A stretch of 64,000 bases of DNA from a virus (taxonomy: Duplodnaviria; Caudoviricetes): positions 16,912 to 80,911 of the IMG/VR virus record IMGVR_UViG_3300031992_000070; one strand, written 5' to 3'. The first letter of the stretch is position 1; each line of letters opens with the position of its first letter. The translations under genes were made by a program, and so were the position numbers. Positions 4,152 through 49,855 of the stretch are shown here, one piece after another. The notes below the pieces were generated by a model, which was given only the letters and a program-made list of their open reading frames with translations, was not told where the DNA came from and searched no databases.

Positions 4152-4225
4152 TGGTCTTGGGTGGAATCGAACCACCGATTAACGCCTTTCGGTAAGCGTT
4201 GCTTCATCCAACGAAGTTCAAGACC
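4152..4225 (-). tRNA. tRNA-like gene with a non-canonical 10-nt anticodon loop (isotype unassignable)
   Basis: GGTCTTG/CAAGACC acceptor, CTTC-GTTGGAT-GAAG D arm, AACGC-TTACCGAAAG-GCGTT arm, GGTGG-TTCGATT-CCACC T arm, A73. Confidence 0.75.
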
Positions 4226-4388
4226 AAGTTGCCCCACCGCTGTAGGGCTTAGTTGAATTTTTAAATAATTGTTTAACTTTTAACCATAACAATGATACAC
4301 CCTCACGGGCTTATATACGATGCAAAGTTACAAATAAACTTTGAATATTTCAAAATCCTATAACATAGTTTAAGTTAAAAAACCAAAA

Positions 4389-9700: not shown

Positions 9701-10309
9701 GCTTTTCAAGCCAAGCAACAGAATCTGTTAAAAGAAATATAGTCTTACTGTCAAGCACATTATTTAGCCTATAATATTCTAAAAAATCAATAAGTTCTTT
9801 CCTTATCCTCTCATCCTCGCTCTCTGGAACAAAGTCTGCGCATATTCCACGTGCAACTTCAACTGTAATTTTTCCACTATTAACCATCTCTTGTAGTTTG
9901 GCTATAGTGTCTTTATGTAATTTCTTGTAGTCCATAATCACAACAAATTTAATTCATGTAATTTCTCAATCATAGTCACGCAAGCATCAACAATGTTGTC
10001 TGCTTTAGTATGTAAATCACTTATGTGTGGATATGTAATATAGTTGTCATCAAGTGCTATTATTGGTTTACTGCCTTGAATTTCTGGTAAAATACCAAGC
10101 AATGCTGCAAGACTCCAACATCTAATATCGTAGTTAAAATCTTCTTTGCCATCTTTGAACAATGGTGTAGGACAAATAGATTCTACATCTGGTGGAAAGT
10201 AATCATTATCAATCTGACAAAAATAATACATATCTGCACTCTCTATTGGCAGTATCTCTGCCAACTTGCGGCTCTGTTCTAAATCAGTGTAACTTTTAAT
10301 TGTTGCCAT
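6721..10309 (-). CDS. Block of small AT-rich hypothetical genes (6721-6963, 7103-7330, 7323-7544, 7549-8187, 8191-8382, 8476-8784, 8918-9133, 9138-9941, 9938-10309)
   Basis: Co-oriented, overlapping or abutting ORFs with shared short motifs (QEEPV, EKQGE, ESEDERIRKE). Confidence 0.7.
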
Positions 10310-10342
10310 ACTTTATCCTTTCTTTTAATTGTTACTTATTAG

Positions 10343-10468
10343 TGGAGAAAGCAGACTCGAACTGCTATCTTCTGATGGTATGTTATGGGATGCCTCCCAA
10401 TGGCGCAGATTTTTTATGTACAGTCACTGCTATGACCACCAGATGTTCTGCCTTTGAACTATTTCCCC
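10343..10468 (-). ncRNA. tRNA-like RNA with an Ala-type acceptor (G3-U70, A73) and a ~55-nt insertion replacing the anticodon loop
   Basis: GGGGAAA/TTTCTCC acceptor, GTTC-AAAGGCA-GAAC D arm, 9-bp TCTGGTGGT/ACCATCAGA stem enclosing the insertion, GCAG-TTCGAGT-CTGC T arm. Confidence 0.7.
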
Positions 10469-10546
10469 AAACGCCCCACCGCTGTGAGGCTAACTGTTAT
10501 AAAATTCATAAATATGAAAGAATACCCATCGCGGGCTTATATCAAA

Positions 10547-10806
10547 AGTGGCACATTCTGCCAAGGTGTGTTGTTACACCAAAGACGCCTACGCATTGCG
10601 TGAAGGTCATTAACCTTGCTCATTCCTATTTTCCCACAGCTACATCAGAAATGTGCACCATAATTGTATTTTATTCCGTTATCAGGCTTTATAATCATAC
10701 AACCGCAAGATACTATTTTCCGTTTTGCCACATGTGGTAGTTCGCGTCACTCTTTAAAAGATGGCTACCTCCAAGCCTACTTTCCTTGTCTGTAAAACGT
10801 GCCACT
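10547..10806 (-). ncRNA. 260-nt structured RNA containing a 23S rRNA H43/H44 (L11-binding) mimic; possibly GOLLD 3'-domain-like
   Basis: 13-bp closing helix; segments GTAGGCTTGGAGGTAGCCATCTTTTAAAGAGT and GTGTAACAACACACCTTG; own promoter at ~10826-10860; no ORF on the transcribed strand. The GOLLD resemblance is from memory, not from a search. Confidence 0.7.
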
Positions 10807-10879
10807 ACATTATCAAAGAACACTTTGCAAATTTACAACTTTAATTTTGAATATTACAAGTTCGTTAGAATAGATTAAC

Positions 10880-11629
10880 TTAAATATCTTTAATCTTATT
10901 TGTTCCGAAAGTTCCGTTGTTAATCCATCTGAAATACTCGCTGTTCATTTCATCCTGCCATTCCTTTTGGTCGTCATACATCATATCATCAGATACATAA
11001 GAGAAAAATCTCAAGAGAATTTCATTTACCATATATCCGCGCAGGATGCCGCCTCCATCCATAAACACGTCGTATGGAGCAATCCCTTTGTCTTCGTTGT
11101 TCTTTGATGACTCGTCGCCAACTACGTCAAAGTGCATCCAGCGCAACACAATGCTTTCAACCTTTCGTGCAAACTCTATATTTTCCAATCCTAAAGGCTT
11201 TAGATACCTTTCCGTGTATCTGTTGAATGCGTGCGGAACGATGTCAATAACCATACCAAGACCTCTATTGCTTCCGTTTACCTTGCTTTTCATCGCAAAC
11301 GGGTCGATTGCAAGAATACCCTTTCCAGTATTGCCGTCAATCTTGTTGCTTCCGTTTTTTCTTTTCTTTTCTATTTCGTATGTGGTATAACAGAAACTCC
11401 AGAACTGTCCTTTCTTTACAGCTTTCTTTGACTTACAGATAATAAGCATCAGCCATTTGTTGTTCCTGTCATCATTAAACCGTATTCTCTGTACATAAGG
11501 GAATCTTGTACCGCGTCCAAACTTGTCCCATATCTCACTTTTAAAATCATCGTAGACGCTTATTGCAGTATTGTAGATTCGGAATGCTTCAAATGCTTTT
11601 TCCTCATCGTTCATCGTAGGTAATACCAT
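10880..11629 (-). CDS. Hypothetical protein (249 aa, start MVLPTMND)
   Basis: Probable true start at 11629 after an A-rich leader; the track start at 11776 overlaps the upstream gene. Confidence 0.7.
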   Translation of the reverse strand: MVLPTMNDEEKAFEAFRIYNTAISVYDDFKSEIWDKFGRGTRFPYVQRIRFNDDRNNKWLMLIICKSKKAVKKGQFWSFCYTTYEIEKKRKNGSNKIDGNTGKGILAIDPFAMKSKVNGSNRGLGMVIDIVPHAFNRYTERYLKPLGLENIEFARKVESIVLRWMHFDVVGDESSKNNEDKGIAPYDVFMDGGGILRGYMVNEILLRFFSYVSDDMMYDDQKEWQDEMNSEYFRWINNGTFGTNKIKDI

Positions 11630-11645
11630 ATCCTTATTTTTGTTT

Positions 11646-12560
11646 TTATTTAAATTTATATACCTTGTTGAATTTTCTCTTTTTTGCCATTTTGTAGTAG
11701 TTGATAATGTCGCATCCGCTTTTGAAACCCATAAGCCACTGTGTGCGTGCATACATAACCCATCTTCCGTCATCAAGGGTTCTCAACGCAAAGTTGTACA
11801 ACTCCATGCTTTTCCATCTTGCGCAGTCCTCCATAAGATGCTGTGCAAATACAGAGAAGTCTTTCTGTATGCTTTTGTCTGTATTATCCCAGAATACAGG
11901 AGTATAGTGTCTGTCGAAAAAATCCTTCCCGTGTTCATCAATCATAAAATCATATACCCTGCGTATATCGTTCATTCGCTTGAAAGTCCAAGCAACAACT
12001 TCGTCGTGCAGCCAGTAGAACTCATCCAACACATTAGATGTGTCATCAATATTCCTTTGTACGGGACGAACATCTATATAGCTTGAGCCTCCGTATATAG
12101 TCGTGCTGTAGTCAACGGTAGCAGCTATAAGGTCTGGTCTTCCTCTTTCATACAATGTCCTGTAGAACGTAGGATAGTCGCATCCTTTACTGCGGAATGC
12201 ACCGATACCGACACTACGACCTACTTTTGTATTGAACCTGAATCTCTTCATTACACATAACAGTTATCTGTTGTCAATCTTTTCGTGCGTAGTGTTAATG
12301 CGGCCTTTGTCAAGCAGATAGTGCATGATGTCTTTCAGATTCTTGTCGCGGTCTTTCTTTGCGCCAGACCACATTGCAACTACCTTGCTTTGCAGTTCAA
12401 GGTATGCCTCTGACTGACCTTTTCGCAGCATATTCAAGTATTCCACATACACCTTTGTTATGTCTTCGTAAGACACTTTCTCACTAATCATCAAATCAAG
12501 AATGATTGCCGCAATAAATTCCTTTGGCAGCGACTTTAATGCTTTTATTATTTCTTCCAT
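11646..12560 (-). CDS. Two hypothetical genes (11646-12251, 12264-12560)
   Basis: Co-oriented ORFs with normal spacing. Confidence 0.7.
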
Positions 12561-15269: not shown

Positions 15270-15281
15270 AATCCCAAAATT

Positions 15282-17850
15282 TTAATTGTTATACTTTAAT
15301 TTCTTAATCTTAGACAGGCGACCACCAAGTTTTACCTTTCGGTTTCTGTTGTCAATCCATCTGATGTCACACATAAATGCGTATGTACCATCTTCAAGCA
15401 GATACTTGTCAAGCACACCTTTGTGGGAAATCTGCTTGTAGAACTGTAGACCGCTTTTAGAATCTTCAAGATTGGCAAAGTATTCCTTTATGCTATATCC
15501 GTACATATCCTCACCTTCTTCTTCGTCTATTGACAACAGCTTTCCCCTGAACTCATACTTTACATCTTTCTCGATACCATTGTCTGCAAGTGTCTTGTCC
15601 CACTCTGGTCTTGTCAAAGACTCCTTGTATGACTTGAGCGCAAAGAAAGCAACGTAGCATTCGCCAATACCGATGTATTCATTTTCGATTGCATCCTTAA
15701 TCTTGGCTGTCAGGTCTTTCTCGCCATCCCAGTTAAGACCACCTTCCTTGTCTTCATAGAACTTGCAGATATTCTTGTAGAGTTCATCATCGGTATCTCC
15801 TGTGAAATCCGAAAAATACTGAGACAGATAGTCAAATGTTCCTAACTTAACCTTGTCACCTCTATCCCATTCTGCCTTAACCCATCCATCTCCGTTCTCT
15901 TTAATAAACGAGTCACACACAGCAATTGCGTAGTCAAATCTAACAGCCTTGCTCAAGTAGTGGTCGGCTGGTCTCCAAGAACCACCTTCCCAACCATATT
16001 CATCACAGCCACCAAGATATACCGTGAAACACTCAAACAACTTTACCGTAATGTCTTTAAGGTACTTACCTTGTGCAACAAGTTTGTCTATACAGGATGA
16101 ACCGACCTGTTTCCATTCACCAGTTACCTTGTTTTTGACAACAAATGACTTCACTCTTCGTGTATGGGTTCCACCGCAATAGTCGCACTTTGTGTATTCC
16201 AAGCCGAACTTGGATGGCATTTCCTTGAATAGTTTTTGGTCAACCATCGTAACAATACCATCGTTGTAATATACTGCTGCGACAAGCGACCAGTCGCCAG
16301 CACACATGTCGCCAATTGTTACCTTGATTGCATCGAACTTTTGTCTGTATCTTTCATAACCATTTTCGTCAGCCATACCACCCTGATAAACAACGGTGGT
16401 AGTCTTGACAACTTTCTCAACCTCGCCGTACTCGACGGTTGGCTTGTTGTCCCAATGCTTGAACATCAACTCAAGTTTTCTTTCACATTTCTGACGCTGG
16501 TCAGGCATAATATAAAACTCCATAATCTCTTTGTTTTAAGTTGTTTCTCTTTTCTTCATATATCTCGTAGATAACTCGTATTCGTCAGCAAGATAACCCA
16601 TCTCATCATCTTTATGTTCCGCTTTCCATAAATTAAGTGCATTGATGTAGTCATCTTTGTAGGGGGTATTGGTATAGTCAATCTCAGTATATGCAACCTC
16701 ATCAGGGGTTTCGTGATAATATATGGCATACCACTTAGTATCTGGCATCATCTTGTTAAGAAAGTCCACAAAAGGCTTAACTTCTTTCATAGCTTTTTCT
16801 TCCTCGTTTTTTCTTTTGAGTTGACGCATTTCTTTTACCCAAGCCTCTTTGACATAATAAGGGACTTCCACTCCATTATCTTCAAATGCTTTTGTTGCCC
16901 GTGCAATCCATTCTTCTTTCTCACGCATTGCAGCATACATAGGGTCATCAGCCCGCATCTGCATTTCCTCACACCAAAACTCATATTCCTCCTGTGCATC
17001 CATTACGTTTTCAACGTACATTGGCTCACCTGCTTCGTTTCTTACTAAATGCTGATACATAATACTTAATGTTTAATTGTTAATACTTACTATGTTCTTC
17101 TTCCCATTTAACTGCATCCTCAAATGTGGCAAACCACATTAAGATGTCAAAATCCGAACGATGGTATCCGTCTTGACCATTGTAGCCACGAAGATAACCA
17201 TCGGCATCAAAGTCATCTACACAGAAGATGTTGTACACACCATCATCTTCCTCAACTATAAAATACCGCATTTCCTTTTTCATATTACCAAATTTTAATA
17301 GGTTTCCTGTCTTTCGTTCCTTTCGTAGCGAGATTCCTAACGGCATTGCCAAAGGACTTGTAATAACCATAAATCCACATTTCGTCTTCATCTTTGCCTT
17401 TGAACTGTTCGTTCAATTCCCACACATCACCATCGTACAACTGAATGTTGGCATAGTGCGTCCACATTGTTTCATCACCATGCCGACCACCACCAGTATA
17501 TTCAACCCTGTCAATCGTGACAAGTTCAACCTCACCACGTTCGTTTATCAAAGGTATTGCGCCCCAAGTCTTTTCGGGAAAATACTTTTGAAGAACGGCA
17601 TCCATAACTACTGGCATCCGTTCAGCCTCACTTGCACTCCAATAGACCATAATCTTTACTTTTTTATCAATGAATAATCTCCATGATTCTGCATACGGAT
17701 AACAACCTTTTCAAGCAGTACCGTAGCCTCGTATAATAACGTCTTTTCTTTTTCTGACAACAACTTGTATTCCTTGTTGTCAAATACACCGCAGTAGTCA
17801 TCAAGAATCTCTACCGCAACATTCAGTCTTTTTGCATCAATCGTAGCCAT
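15282..17850 (-). CDS. Hypothetical early genes (15282-16523 413 aa, 16536-17060, 17080-17391, 17285-17650, 17656-17850)
   Basis: Co-oriented ORFs; 15282-16523 carries a CDYCG...GSSC motif. Confidence 0.7.
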
Positions 17851-18024: not shown

Positions 18025-18819
18025 TTAATCTACTCCATACGAACGCTTGAATGACTGCATATAACTACGCACTCTCTGTGCATTATCATTGCTTGGAAGT
18101 CTGAAATTCCACCTGACAAACAGCGTATTATCAAACTCCTTGTAGTCAGCCATTAGGCTTAATATGTTTGACCTGTTAGGCTCTTTACAGTTTATGTGTT
18201 CCCAATCCCAATCCGACGGGTCGCCATCAGTGTAGTCTGGAAATACCTTTGACAATACTTTTGCAAATACCGTAATGTCACGACATTCCTGATGTCGCTT
18301 TCTTTTCATTTCTCCTTTTTTCATCTGTTCTTCTTCTTTTTGTTTTTTAGATTTCCTGTTAAAACTTTCTCTCCATTTCTTACAAGCACCGCCAGTCGCC
18401 TCGCCACGTTCCTTCTTTGCAGCAAGAGCTTGTTTAGTTCTCGTTGATACCATTTCCCGCTCGTATTGCGCAACGGCGGCAAATACACCGAGTATCATTG
18501 AATTGACAACAGGCATATCCGTAAAGTGAATGTCTATACCTGTGTTTATTACCTTGAAAGTAAACTCCACATCCCTGCTCATTCTGTCCAACTTCGCAAT
18601 AACTAAACTACAATCATTCTTCTTGCAGTAGTCAATCGCTTGCCACAGACCCTTTCTGTCACGATGTGTTCCACTTTCTACATCAATAAATTCTTGGACA
18701 TGGCAACCGTTGTTCTGTTTAATAAAGTTCTCGCACATATTCCTCTGTGCAGAGATACCAAGTCCTTGCGCGCCTTGACGCTGTGTCGAGACACGAAGAT
18801 AGGTTACATATTGTTTCAT
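18025..18819 (-). CDS. Serine recombinase, resolvase/invertase type
   Basis: YVTYLRVSTQRQ catalytic motif, DVESGT..DRKGL, IAKLDRMSR, ERE..S.RTKQALAAKK. Confidence 0.92.
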   Translation of the reverse strand: MKQYVTYLRVSTQRQGAQGLGISAQRNMCENFIKQNNGCHVQEFIDVESGTHRDRKGLWQAIDYCKKNDCSLVIAKLDRMSRDVEFTFKVINTGIDIHFTDMPVVNSMILGVFAAVAQYEREMVSTRTKQALAAKKERGEATGGACKKWRESFNRKSKKQKEEEQMKKGEMKRKRHQECRDITVFAKVLSKVFPDYTDGDPSDWDWEHINCKEPNRSNILSLMADYKEFDNTLFVRWNFRLPSNDNAQRVRSYMQSFKRSYGVD

Positions 18820-18822
18820 TGT

Positions 18823-19413
18823 TTATTTATTTAAATCATCAACGTATTTCCATTTATATCCACCAGCGGTTTTTCTTATACCCACACACGATGCATATAT
18901 TCCACTCATCTGTATTCCAAGACTTTTACTTGCTTGCTTGACACTACTCCATTTCTTAACTTCAATATCTTCTGGTGTAAATTGAGCCACCCATAAAGAA
19001 TGTTCGCTATGAAACTTTCGTATGCTTTCAACCCTCTTTTTGTTAGCATCAATATATTTAGACCTTGCAATAGGGAAATTTGTGTTTTCTCTTTGTGTAC
19101 ACCACCTCAAATTAGTTGCACGATTATCTGTCCGAATGCCATTTATATGGTCTATAAAATCCTTACCATCTACTTTTTCTAAAAATGCTTTTGCAACAAG
19201 CCGATGTACAGTAAAAGCCTTTCTCTTTTTTTTATACCACAACGATACTACTTTATAACCAGTGTTTAATAACTCTTGTGATATAATTTTTCCTTTCACT
19301 TTTTGTGGTGTTGAAGAACGCAAAATAGTTCTATCAACCGATTTTACTCTTCCAAGGTTGCTCACTTGATAAAGCCCTTCGTAGCCAACTACGTCTTTCC
19401 ATATCTCTTCCAT
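18823..19413 (-). CDS. NUMOD4-HNH-NUMOD1 homing endonuclease
   Basis: EIWKDVVGYEGLYQVSNLGRVKS (NUMOD4), VHRLVAKAF..IDHINGIRTDNRATNLRW (HNH), KTAGGYKWKY (NUMOD1). Confidence 0.92.
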   Translation of the reverse strand: MEEIWKDVVGYEGLYQVSNLGRVKSVDRTILRSSTPQKVKGKIISQELLNTGYKVVSLWYKKKRKAFTVHRLVAKAFLEKVDGKDFIDHINGIRTDNRATNLRWCTQRENTNFPIARSKYIDANKKRVESIRKFHSEHSLWVAQFTPEDIEVKKWSSVKQASKSLGIQMSGIYASCVGIRKTAGGYKWKYVDDLNK

Positions 19414-19573
19414 AAGTATAAAACAAAAGGTAACTTTCAAAATGCGGTCTCCTACCTCCGCAGATTTACTCGTTACCATTGTTAAGTTCGTTGATGCTTA
19501 GTAGGAGTTAAGCGTCATATACATATGCAAAGATACAAAGAATATTTGGAATACGCAAATATATTAACTTAGA

Positions 19574-23206: not shown

Positions 23207-23263
23207 AATCTTATTTTTTAATTAATACTAAATTCTGTTTATTGTTCGTGTCTTTTGAAAAAC

Positions 23264-48108: not shown

Positions 48109-48147
48109 AATTTTACCCTTTCTTTAATTTAATGTTATTCTTAATTG

Positions 48148-49855
48148 TTATTCAATCTGTTTGTCGATGACTAATACAAAAGACTTTCTATATATATGAT
48201 ACTGATTACCCTTTTGCGAGGTTTCATCATCATCTGCAGAGAGTTCAGAACCTTTAAGTACGTAATAGTCTGTGTTGCGAGATTCTGTAGCAAGGTTTAC
48301 AACGGTATTTATACCATCTTCAAATGCCTTGTATTTCTCCGTATCAAGTCTTCCGCGAGGTTTTTTCGGAACATACGCAGTAACATAGCATCTTGCCCAT
48401 CCGTAAGCATCGCCATCAAATTCGCTTTCGTCATTCAAAACACCTACTCTTAACGAGATAAACCCGTTTGAGGTATCGCTTTCGGTATTTTCCGTAGGCT
48501 CACCCATTTTATACACATTCTCTGACACAGTGCCATAAAACATGTCGTACAAGTAGTTGTAGATGTCTATTCTTGACTCTTTGAACATAATTAACTAGCT
48601 CTATAGATATTGAATGTTACATTACTTGACTTGAGGTCTCTTGAAACAACATCGTAGTGTCGTGTCATTACCTGCCATCGCAGTTCTTTTCCAGAACGCA
48701 ACGAGAATCCAGTTTCCCAGTATCCCCAATAAGGTGCAAGCACGGCAAAAAACACTTCCCACCCTTTTTCGTTTGTAGGCTTGTAACCCTGAATGAATCT
48801 CTGTGCCAAATAATGACCGCTGACAGATTCGCCCATTGGTCTTGAATATTCATGCAAATGAGATACTTCGCTTGCGGCTTGCGCCCTATAATAGCCAGAC
48901 TTTTTTCTATCTCCGTTAAAATACACGCCCCAACAAAGACTGTCAAGAAGGTTTCCTGTCCTATCCAAATTGTTTGCGTGCGGAAAAACGGATATGTCAT
49001 TGCCTATTTGCTGAATCTCATGCATCGCATATTCAATAAGCCGTTCGGTCTGCAAGTCAGACATCTTTTTAAATATATGCCCCTCTATCGCCTTTTGCGG
49101 AAATATGACCTTTGACTTTTTCATAACCTACCAGACCTTTCTCGTCGAATATATGCTTACGCCGCCTATTTGCGACGGCTCTGCGTTGTCTACAACAAAC
49201 TGAATCGTTTCACCGTAACGAACAAGTGAAATTCTGTCTCCCTTCCTTGGAATTATGTAGATATCCTCATCATCCTTTGTTAGTGGAATGGATATGATGT
49301 AAGATGATGTCTGTAGCACACGTCCTTCATTGTCCGTTACCATGTGCTCATCCATTACGCCATCGTACAGAGTTACCTCCGTATCGTTTTCGTCACCATT
49401 CCCTTCAATGATTCTGGTAATAGTTCCTTGGTATGGGTATTCAAGAATCTCGTCCCTTGTCATAGCCGCTCAACGTCTTCAATCGGTATAAACCTAATCT
49501 TCTTCTGTATGCCCTCTAGTATCTCGGCCTTTTCGTCATCGTACAGTTTGTACATACGGATTGCATACTTGATTTTCTCATCCTGATAAAAGTCCTGCTC
49601 TGAGCCAATGGTCTTTTGGTAGCCATTGTGTGACTGTTGCAATGACGAGGTATTAGACGGGCTTAGAAGTACGGCTGCAAATATAATGTCAGCTGTCATT
49701 AGTTCCCTGTCGCGCTTCGTTACATTGTCGCCGTAAGCATCGTCGTCAGGGTTAATCCCTCTCTCCAATGCTATCTTGACAAAATTCTGCTCGTCAAAAC
49801 GAGTGTATGTCGTGGATGCTTTAAGCCATTCTAATACCGTCATTGCCTCAATCAA
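48148..49855 (-). CDS. Head-tail joining genes: tail terminator (48148-48588), neck (48591-49124), head closure (49128-49463), adaptor (49460-49855)
   Basis: Canonical order and sizes between the capsid and tail tube genes. Confidence 0.65.

Follow-up and report, generated by a model that had tools for sequence, protein, structure and literature searches.

A tRNA-shaped phage RNA gene with a structured insert in place of the anticodon loop

Background

Several described RNAs come close to the gene reported here. The tRNA genes of the Lak megaphages of Prevotella contain "enigmatic" conserved inserts, tens of nucleotides long, that leave a normal anticodon (Devoto et al., 10.1101/356790). ROOL and GOLLD are structured RNAs encoded by phages near tRNA genes, some of them in the rumen, and they form oligomers through kissing loops (PMC12286853). 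tmRNA (SsrA) combines a G3.U70 acceptor stem and a T arm with a large internal domain in place of the anticodon; it lacks an anticodon stem, its D arm is reduced, and it contains pseudoknots and a conserved tag frame. The scaffold of Ponchon and Dardel is said to keep the acceptor, D, and T arms of a tRNA, to extend the anticodon stem, and to replace the loop with a cargo RNA, and in E. coli it reportedly shows the processing and stability of a tRNA. It was engineered for recombinant RNA expression and makes stable RNAs in that host (PMC3753655). YrlA, a Y RNA-like RNA of bacteria and phages, is non-decoding and includes a tRNA-like module (PMC4201824).

The gene that we describe has the same design as the engineered scaffold; that one is man-made, whereas this one is natural, phage-encoded, and under selection. 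Like the Lak genes, it is an over-long tRNA gene of a gut-type phage with an insert in the anticodon region and no ribozyme or known splicing route. The Lak genes differ in that tRNA type and anticodon can be assigned once the insert is removed, whereas excision here restores no canonical arm, and the insert here is carried by an extended stem and changes as a module while the body stays constant. The RNA differs from tmRNA in its full D arm and 9-bp anticodon stem and in having neither pseudoknots nor a conserved frame. At the locus Rfam reports no Y RNA family, and YrlA reportedly has the opposite topology, with both ends of the RNA on the "anticodon" side and the acceptor-like stem closed by a loop. 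ROOL and GOLLD resemble the gene as phage-encoded structured RNAs; they differ in being 500-800 nt long and not tRNA-shaped, they give no match here, and dimerisation of the present RNA is a prediction.

The tRNA-shaped gene

The gene is found in an IMG/VR virus record (IMGVR_UViG_3300031992_000070, 80.9 kb, complete by CheckV) from a tailed phage that encodes a terminase, an SPP1-type portal, and RecT. The window, to which coordinates refer unless a contig is named, is the stretch of 64,000 nucleotides at positions 16,912 to 80,911 of that record. The tRNA-shaped gene is real, and the genes around it are all on the same strand (Table 1). The Rfam tRNA model RF00005 matches it end to end with 41.8 bits (E 1.2e-7; gathering score 29) and places a 63-nt insertion at the site of the 7-nt anticodon loop. 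The minimum-energy fold is a cloverleaf, and an equally good fold was obtained in only 2 of 200 shuffles. Given the Rfam score, the shuffles, and about 13 homologous loci, the tRNA shape goes beyond chance.

An earlier note, made from the sequence alone, had described acceptor pairs of the alanine type with A73, a normal D arm, and a 9-bp stem around about 55 nt; all are present on the minus strand. The acceptor pairs are G1-C72, G2-C71, G3.U70, G4-C69, A5-U68, and A6-U67, and the RNA has U8 and A9. The D-loop G18 G19 (tRNA numbering) and the T-loop UUCGA are invariant in 12 sequences. The anticodon stem is a continuous helix of 9 bp (UCUGGUGGU/ACCAUCAGA) that encloses 55 nt; its fifth pair is G.U in the window, A-U in L170, and A.C in L171. 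Two features had escaped the earlier note. The discriminator is an A at 10343 and CCA is not encoded, and the acceptor/T stack is only 11 bp (7+4 or 6+5) in this copy and in its two closest homologues. A 12-bp stack appears in the window copy only in the shifted register used by ARAGORN, with U-1 paired to A73 and the G.U then at 4:69. The other members of the family have a 12-bp stack.

Table 1. Features of the tRNA-shaped gene and its flanks in the window, in the 5' to 3' order of the RNA
Feature	Coordinates	Strand	Sequence or remark	Basis
Upstream small hairpin	10524..10538	-	AAGCCC-GCGA-UGGGU, then a U-rich run	common to cassettes
Leader hairpin	10473..10490	-	GCCUCAC-AGCG-GUGGGGC; ends 4 nt before the tRNA 5' end	
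tRNA-shaped gene	10343..10468	-	126 nt; RNA position 1 = 10468; type A	
Acceptor stem	10462..10468 with 10344-10350	-	GGGGAAA with UUUCUCC; G3.U70	Rfam register
D arm	10445..10459	-	GUUC / AAAGGCA / GAAC; D loop carries G18 G19	fold and Rfam
Extended anticodon stem, 5' strand	10435..10443	-	UCUGG + UGGU; pairs with 10371-10379	
Structured insert	10380..10434	-	replaces the 7-nt anticodon loop	fold and type A comparison
Insert hairpin P3	10405..10430	-	GCAG / 18-nt loop / CUGC	compensatory change in L171
Self-complementary hexamer in P3 loop	10417-10422	-	UGUACA	
Mini reading frame	10383..10427	-	GUG...UAA, 14 codons, VTVHKKSAPLGGIP and stop	window copy only
Insert hairpin P4	10386..10399	-	UGGGA-GGCA-UCCCA	compensatory change in L170
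Conserved block	10377..10389	-	CCCAUAACAUACC; linker (A)AUAAYAUA and first bases of the closing stem	
Variable loop	10366-10370	-	AGAUA	
T arm	10351..10365	-	GCAG / UUCGAGU / CUGC; 4 bp	Rfam register
Conserved trailer	10310..10342	-	CUAAUAAGUAACAAUUAAAA...; reaches the AUG of the next gene (9938-10309)	

Homologues and insert types

About 13 homologous loci in contigs of metagenomic phages came out of protein-anchored and pattern searches; they have the leader hairpin, the tRNA body, and the trailer in common. Four other searches returned nothing beyond chance: blastn against 50,697 phage records and a single-sequence covariance model over 33 related viral records found no homologue, the exact 5' and 3' tRNA words had no match in viral contigs, and a scan of one genome per prokaryote species gave chance hits only. 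The Rfam tRNA model matches all homologues with 41-54 bits (one at 28.3), against 51-67 bits for ordinary tRNAs of related phages.

A single tRNA body is combined with three types of insert. Type A is found in the window, L170, and L171; type B in L157, L161, L165, L172, L177, and L190; and type C in L155 (identical to L025 and L166), L156 (identical to L173), and L162. L177 joins a body like that of type A to a type B insert. In L172 and L165 the tRNA-like gene lies downstream of a homologue of 10880-11776, as in the window, and in L157, L156, and L162 it lies upstream of homologues of the genes downstream in the window. The syntenic phages are at about 70-90% DNA identity. L034, the closest relative by protein, lacks the whole cassette of about 1 kb: window positions 9938-10880 (spacer, tRNA-like gene, and 123-aa ORF) correspond to about 105 nt at L034:3732-3837. 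The locus is therefore dispensable, accessory, and modular. Other viral contigs contain about 29 homologues of the 123-aa ORF, which has no family assignment. No description of such a tRNA-shaped family was found in the literature, and these RNAs, with a modular domain in place of the anticodon loop, apparently form a small undescribed family.

Structure of the insert

The three type A sequences contain four compensatory pairs. One lies in the acceptor stem (A6-U67 to G-C in L171) and one in the D stem (U-A to C-G in L171), and two lie inside the insert, in P3 (A-U to G-C in L171; GCAG/CUGC against GCGG/CCGU) and in P4 (G-C to U-A in L170; UGGGA..UCCCA against UUGGA..UCCAA). Set against a reading frame that is not conserved (see below), they indicate that the insert is under selection as a folded RNA and not as a message. 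Covariation among homologues had been proposed in the earlier note as a check, and body and insert contain these compensatory pairs. We also considered, and rejected, base pairing between CAUAC of the insert and GUAUG at the start of the following gene, which shows no covariation, including in type C and three type B members.

Types A and B have in common a hairpin whose loop contains a 6-nt self-complementary word. This is UGUACA in the window and in four distinct type B sequences (L190, which has the same hairpin as L157, makes five), GGUACC in L170 and L171, and UGCGCA in L161. The loop hexamer is 100% self-paired, two of its three pairs are changed on both sides, and 6 of 500 shuffles were as good; the palindrome evidence comes from 6 distinct sequences, and the outer change could alternatively be one in the closing pair of a GUAC tetraloop. 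Two independent double changes thus leave the hexamer self-complementary, and it may serve a loop-loop (kissing) homodimer.

All three types share a single-stranded linker, (A)AUAAYAUA, just 5' of the 3' strand of the closing helix. Between insert types, structure is kept only in this linker and in the one hairpin. The complement of the linker was sought across the phage genome as an antisense target, and none stood above chance. The linker was also considered as a mimic of the phage pre-start motif TAACAATTAAAA, and was rejected for its weak resemblance; words like TAACAATTAAAA also precede other gene starts in the phage. The insert matches no Rfam family at E up to 10. It is not folded like a small tRNA, as Rfam and ARAGORN find the outer tRNA only and the hairpin loops are of 4 nt and 18 nt.

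Reading frame, decoding and alanine identity

The GUG...UAA frame reported in the earlier note, with the UGGGA-GGCA-UCCCA hairpin just before UAA, is present in the window sequence. A 1-nt indel in the A-rich loop shifts this frame in L170 and L171 and the stop is lost, and translation of all homologues revealed no comparable frame in types B and C. An open frame of 14 codons within 55 nt is not unusual. ARAGORN reports no tmRNA, by default or with introns allowed, the tmRNA families of Rfam give no hit up to an E of 10, and the nested-structure fold predictions showed no pseudoknot. The option of a mini-tmRNA-like RNA, raised in the earlier note, fails on frame conservation, which the note had itself named as a test, and on the tmRNA models; the note had already voiced doubt about true trans-translation. 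ARAGORN also called a permuted tmRNA in a 102-kb phage contig (L151:7120-7429, plus strand; tag GDVNIVDYTGLKEAA, then stop), where Rfam finds no tmRNA. This call is probably false.

By default, ARAGORN makes no call at the gene. If introns are allowed, its call is tRNA-Asp(GUC) with an intron of 56 nt, the register shifted by one base and G at position 33; it calls Tyr(GUA) in type B and "Stop"(UUA) in type C. We rejected these isotypes, which are mutually inconsistent and require G33 or mismatched stems. The window copy lacks the anticodon arm of a decoding tRNA, in which a 5-bp stem closes a 7-nt loop with U33 and a purine at 37, and it lacks the 12-bp stack. By brute force we generated every single excision in the anticodon arm and counted an arm as canonical if it had U33, R37, and four or more of the 5 stem pairs; none was produced for type A, type C, or L172. 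One excision in three type B members gives a Tyr-GUA-like arm with U33 and A37, which has a U.C mismatch and is at chance level. In L172 this candidate is destroyed and an alternative helix of the insert is strengthened instead. Type A has G at the position that would become 33, and type B varies there between G and U.

We searched the locus and the phage for means of splicing. A bulge-helix-bulge is absent (the stem runs through 9 pairs without interruption by 3-nt bulges), and neither a group I intron nor another ribozyme was found by Rfam, the insert being 55 nt against a core of about 200 nt or more. The splicing endonuclease family PF01974 is absent from the phage, and no genes for RtcB, an Rnl-type ligase, or a splicing endonuclease were found in it, the T4 Rnl1 search having had no working control.

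AlaRS ignores the anticodon, and its full acceptor-stem set is G3.U70, G1-C72, G2-C71, G4-C69, and A73. The tRNA-Ala set G3.U70, A73, and G2-C71 is present in the window, L170, and L171, so the identity proposed in the earlier note holds for these three and does not extend to the family. The G.U is at G2.U71 in L172 and L155 and is missing from L156 and L162, and L157 and L161 have C73. Type A RNA could plausibly be charged by AlaRS once CCA is added; given the drifting G.U and the C73 of some members, alanine charging is not a conserved requirement of the family. The phage encodes no alanyl-tRNA-dependent transferase of the FemAB, LPG_synthase_C, or Acetyltransf_6 families.

Flanking elements and other tRNA-like genes

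The leader hairpin has a fold z of about -3.5. The 81-kb genome contains only two copies, each just 5' of a tRNA-like gene. Hairpins of this kind with covarying stems also precede ordinary tRNA genes in other phage contigs (Glu-UUC, Arg-UCU, Leu-CAA, and Met), which marks the hairpin as a tRNA-gene leader in this phage group and suggests that both odd tRNA-like genes are expressed and handled as tRNA genes. We also considered the leader as an N4-type hairpin promoter, a doubtful reading: both copies are at tRNA-like genes, and the 2272-aa ORF has no recognisable polymerase domain. Across contigs the AGCG loop is invariant (AGCA in L190), the stems are of 6-8 bp, and the hairpin lies 2-4 nt before some ordinary phage tRNA genes (L049:11983-11753, L054:2010-2100, L151:7890-7992, L011:1640-1735, and L031:1895-1991). 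It looks like a tRNA-linked signal, which could act in processing, as a promoter, or as a cassette border.

No canonical tRNA was found in the phage genome; 10343-10468 and a gene at 4152-4225 (minus strand) are the only tRNA-like ones. The second gene scores 37.5 bits with the Rfam tRNA model and has a 10-nt anticodon loop (UUACCGAAAG), A8, and a 4-nt variable loop. Its leader hairpin at 4231-4248, five nucleotides before the gene, has the same AGCG loop, and a hairpin farther upstream at 4298-4312 repeats the AAGCCC-GNRA-GGGU pattern. Two more unusual genes with this leader occur in other contigs. An 89-nt tRNA-like gene at L049:11824-11912 (minus strand; Rfam 44.4 bits), in a cluster of seven tRNA genes, has a 24-nt hairpin insert in the anticodon region, and one at L159:830-911 (minus strand) has a long variable arm and an odd anticodon loop (UAAACA).

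The 412-nt non-coding spacer at 10469-10880 contains a partial match to the bacterial 23S rRNA model at 10721-10799 (minus strand; 13.9 bits, E 0.039), which covers model positions 1079-1158 (the L11-binding GTPase-associated centre) and is followed by terminator-like hairpins at 10549-10563 and 10524-10536. The tRNA-like gene is present in L172 and the spacer is absent, so the 23S-like RNA and the tRNA-like gene are not obligatorily linked. An A/T-rich word, (A/T)TAACAATTAA(A/G)A, has 8 matches before start codons where 1.8 are expected, about 10-40 nt before minus-strand starts (for example at 2760-2773, 15280-15293, 17071-17084, 23216-23229, and 48139-48152), and AACAAT lies upstream of 17 of 120 ORFs. 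The A/T-rich word may be a translation-initiation motif of the phage. Elsewhere in the window, at 18025-19479 (minus strand), a small serine recombinase (Resolvase domain) adjoins a homing-type endonuclease (HNH/NUMOD4).

Discussion

Our best explanation, to which we assign a probability of about one half, is that the gene encodes a non-decoding, structured RNA on a tRNA scaffold, matured like a tRNA, whose domain binds a partner and may dimerise. The acceptor stem, D arm, T arm, and elbow nucleotides form the tRNA body. Host RNase P, a 3' trimming enzyme, and the CCA-adding enzyme would mature the RNA and it would have tRNA-like stability, as the leader hairpin and the CCA-less trailer are like those of ordinary tRNA genes in related phages. 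The anticodon stem, lengthened to 9 bp, bears a 55-nt junction domain of two hairpins and a conserved single-stranded AAUAACAUA. This domain would be the working part, exchanged as a module (A, B, or C) on one scaffold at one genomic position. With no anticodon loop, the RNA would read no codon. The cell would take it for a tRNA while it binds a protein or another RNA, so that it could serve as a decoy, sponge, or adaptor, and a second copy may pair with it through the loop hexamer.

This scaffold reading is consistent with the fit of the tRNA model to all homologues, the syntenic place below the homologue of 10880-11776, the compensatory pairs, and the linker that recurs in all insert types. 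The excision results, G or G/U at position 33, and the failure to find a ligase or endonuclease gene also point towards it, as do the loop hexamer that stays self-complementary, the lack of an ordinary tRNA in a phage whose other tRNA-like gene has an abnormal loop too, and the engineered scaffolds of the same design. Against it stand the absence of the cassette from L034, the lack of an antisense target in the phage genome, the little insert structure that is kept across types, and the precedent of Lak-type inserts that leave a normal anticodon (10.1101/356790). We regard as rather doubtful the further proposal of a tRNA-mimic class, in which such RNAs would be natural scaffolds, matured like tRNAs and alanylated in some members, whose exchangeable, fast-evolving domain would form homodimers through the covarying palindromic kissing loop and offer conserved AAUAACAUA to a host factor; the RNA would act as decoy or adaptor in phage-host conflict and not in decoding.

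The earlier note had left three options, a tmRNA-like RNA, an intron-containing tRNA, and a decoy, and the last, as a non-decoding RNA, fits best. An intron, excised by a host or phage pathway to give a functional tRNA as proposed for the Lak megaphages, is weakened. We consider it unlikely and keep it as the main rival because Lak tRNA genes do contain conserved, unexplained inserts (10.1101/356790). ARAGORN calls Asp(GUC) in the window and Tyr(GUA) in type B when introns are allowed, three type B members can yield an arm with U33 and A37, and a structure that guides splicing would itself predict a conserved insert structure. However, the Asp loop has G33, the type B arm is at chance level with its U.C mismatch and is destroyed in L172, and neither type A, type C, nor L172 gives a canonical arm. 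The 9 continuous stem pairs leave no bulge-helix-bulge, no group I or other ribozyme matches, the insert itself lacks a tRNA shape, ligase and endonuclease genes are missing from the phage, and the type A acceptor/T stack is only 11 bp. For a mini-tmRNA that is alanylated, enters stalled ribosomes, and has its internal frame translated as a tag, one can cite the G1-C72, G2-C71, G3.U70, G4-C69, and A73 of type A and the 14 codons that end after a hairpin in the window copy. We give this almost no credence: that frame is lost in the two closest homologues and absent from types B and C, ARAGORN and Rfam find no tmRNA, a full D arm and a 9-bp anticodon stem stand where tmRNA has none, pseudoknots are absent, and G3.U70 varies in the family.

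Two other explanations were weighed. The gene could belong to the 5' leader of its downstream neighbour as a processing or "punctuation" element: its tRNA shape would recruit RNase P and RNase Z, whose cuts would set the 5' end of the mRNA, and the insert would have a regulatory role or be incidental. An ORF starts about 20-45 nt downstream of each member of the family, with the conserved trailer. These ORFs are not the same from locus to locus, so the cassette moves together with the translation-initiation region. Starts of the form GUAUG are enriched behind the cassette, at 7 of 10 compared with 9 of 105 genes genome-wide. We judge such a role quite improbable, since acceptor and T arms would suffice for such cuts, which leaves the compensatory changes and conserved motifs of the insert unexplained, and type C and three type B members show no covariation in the CAUAC:GUAUG pairing. 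A decaying tRNA pseudogene, broken by a small selfish or accidental insertion, would agree with the dispensability seen in L034, with the defective acceptor/T stack of type A and the extra mismatches in L171, and with the drifting position of the G.U. It is very unlikely in view of the compensatory substitutions in body and insert, the invariant elbow nucleotides, and the persistence of the element at one locus in phages that have diverged to about 70-90% DNA identity.

Phage tRNA genes are usually read as devices for codon supply or against nucleases. If the scaffold reading is true, the tRNA fold would also serve phages as a stable carrier, matured by enzymes, for RNA functions of other kinds, the same trick that RNA engineers have used and independently devised, and the gene would provide a concrete case among the over-long tRNA genes that are so far unexplained in gut and rumen phages.
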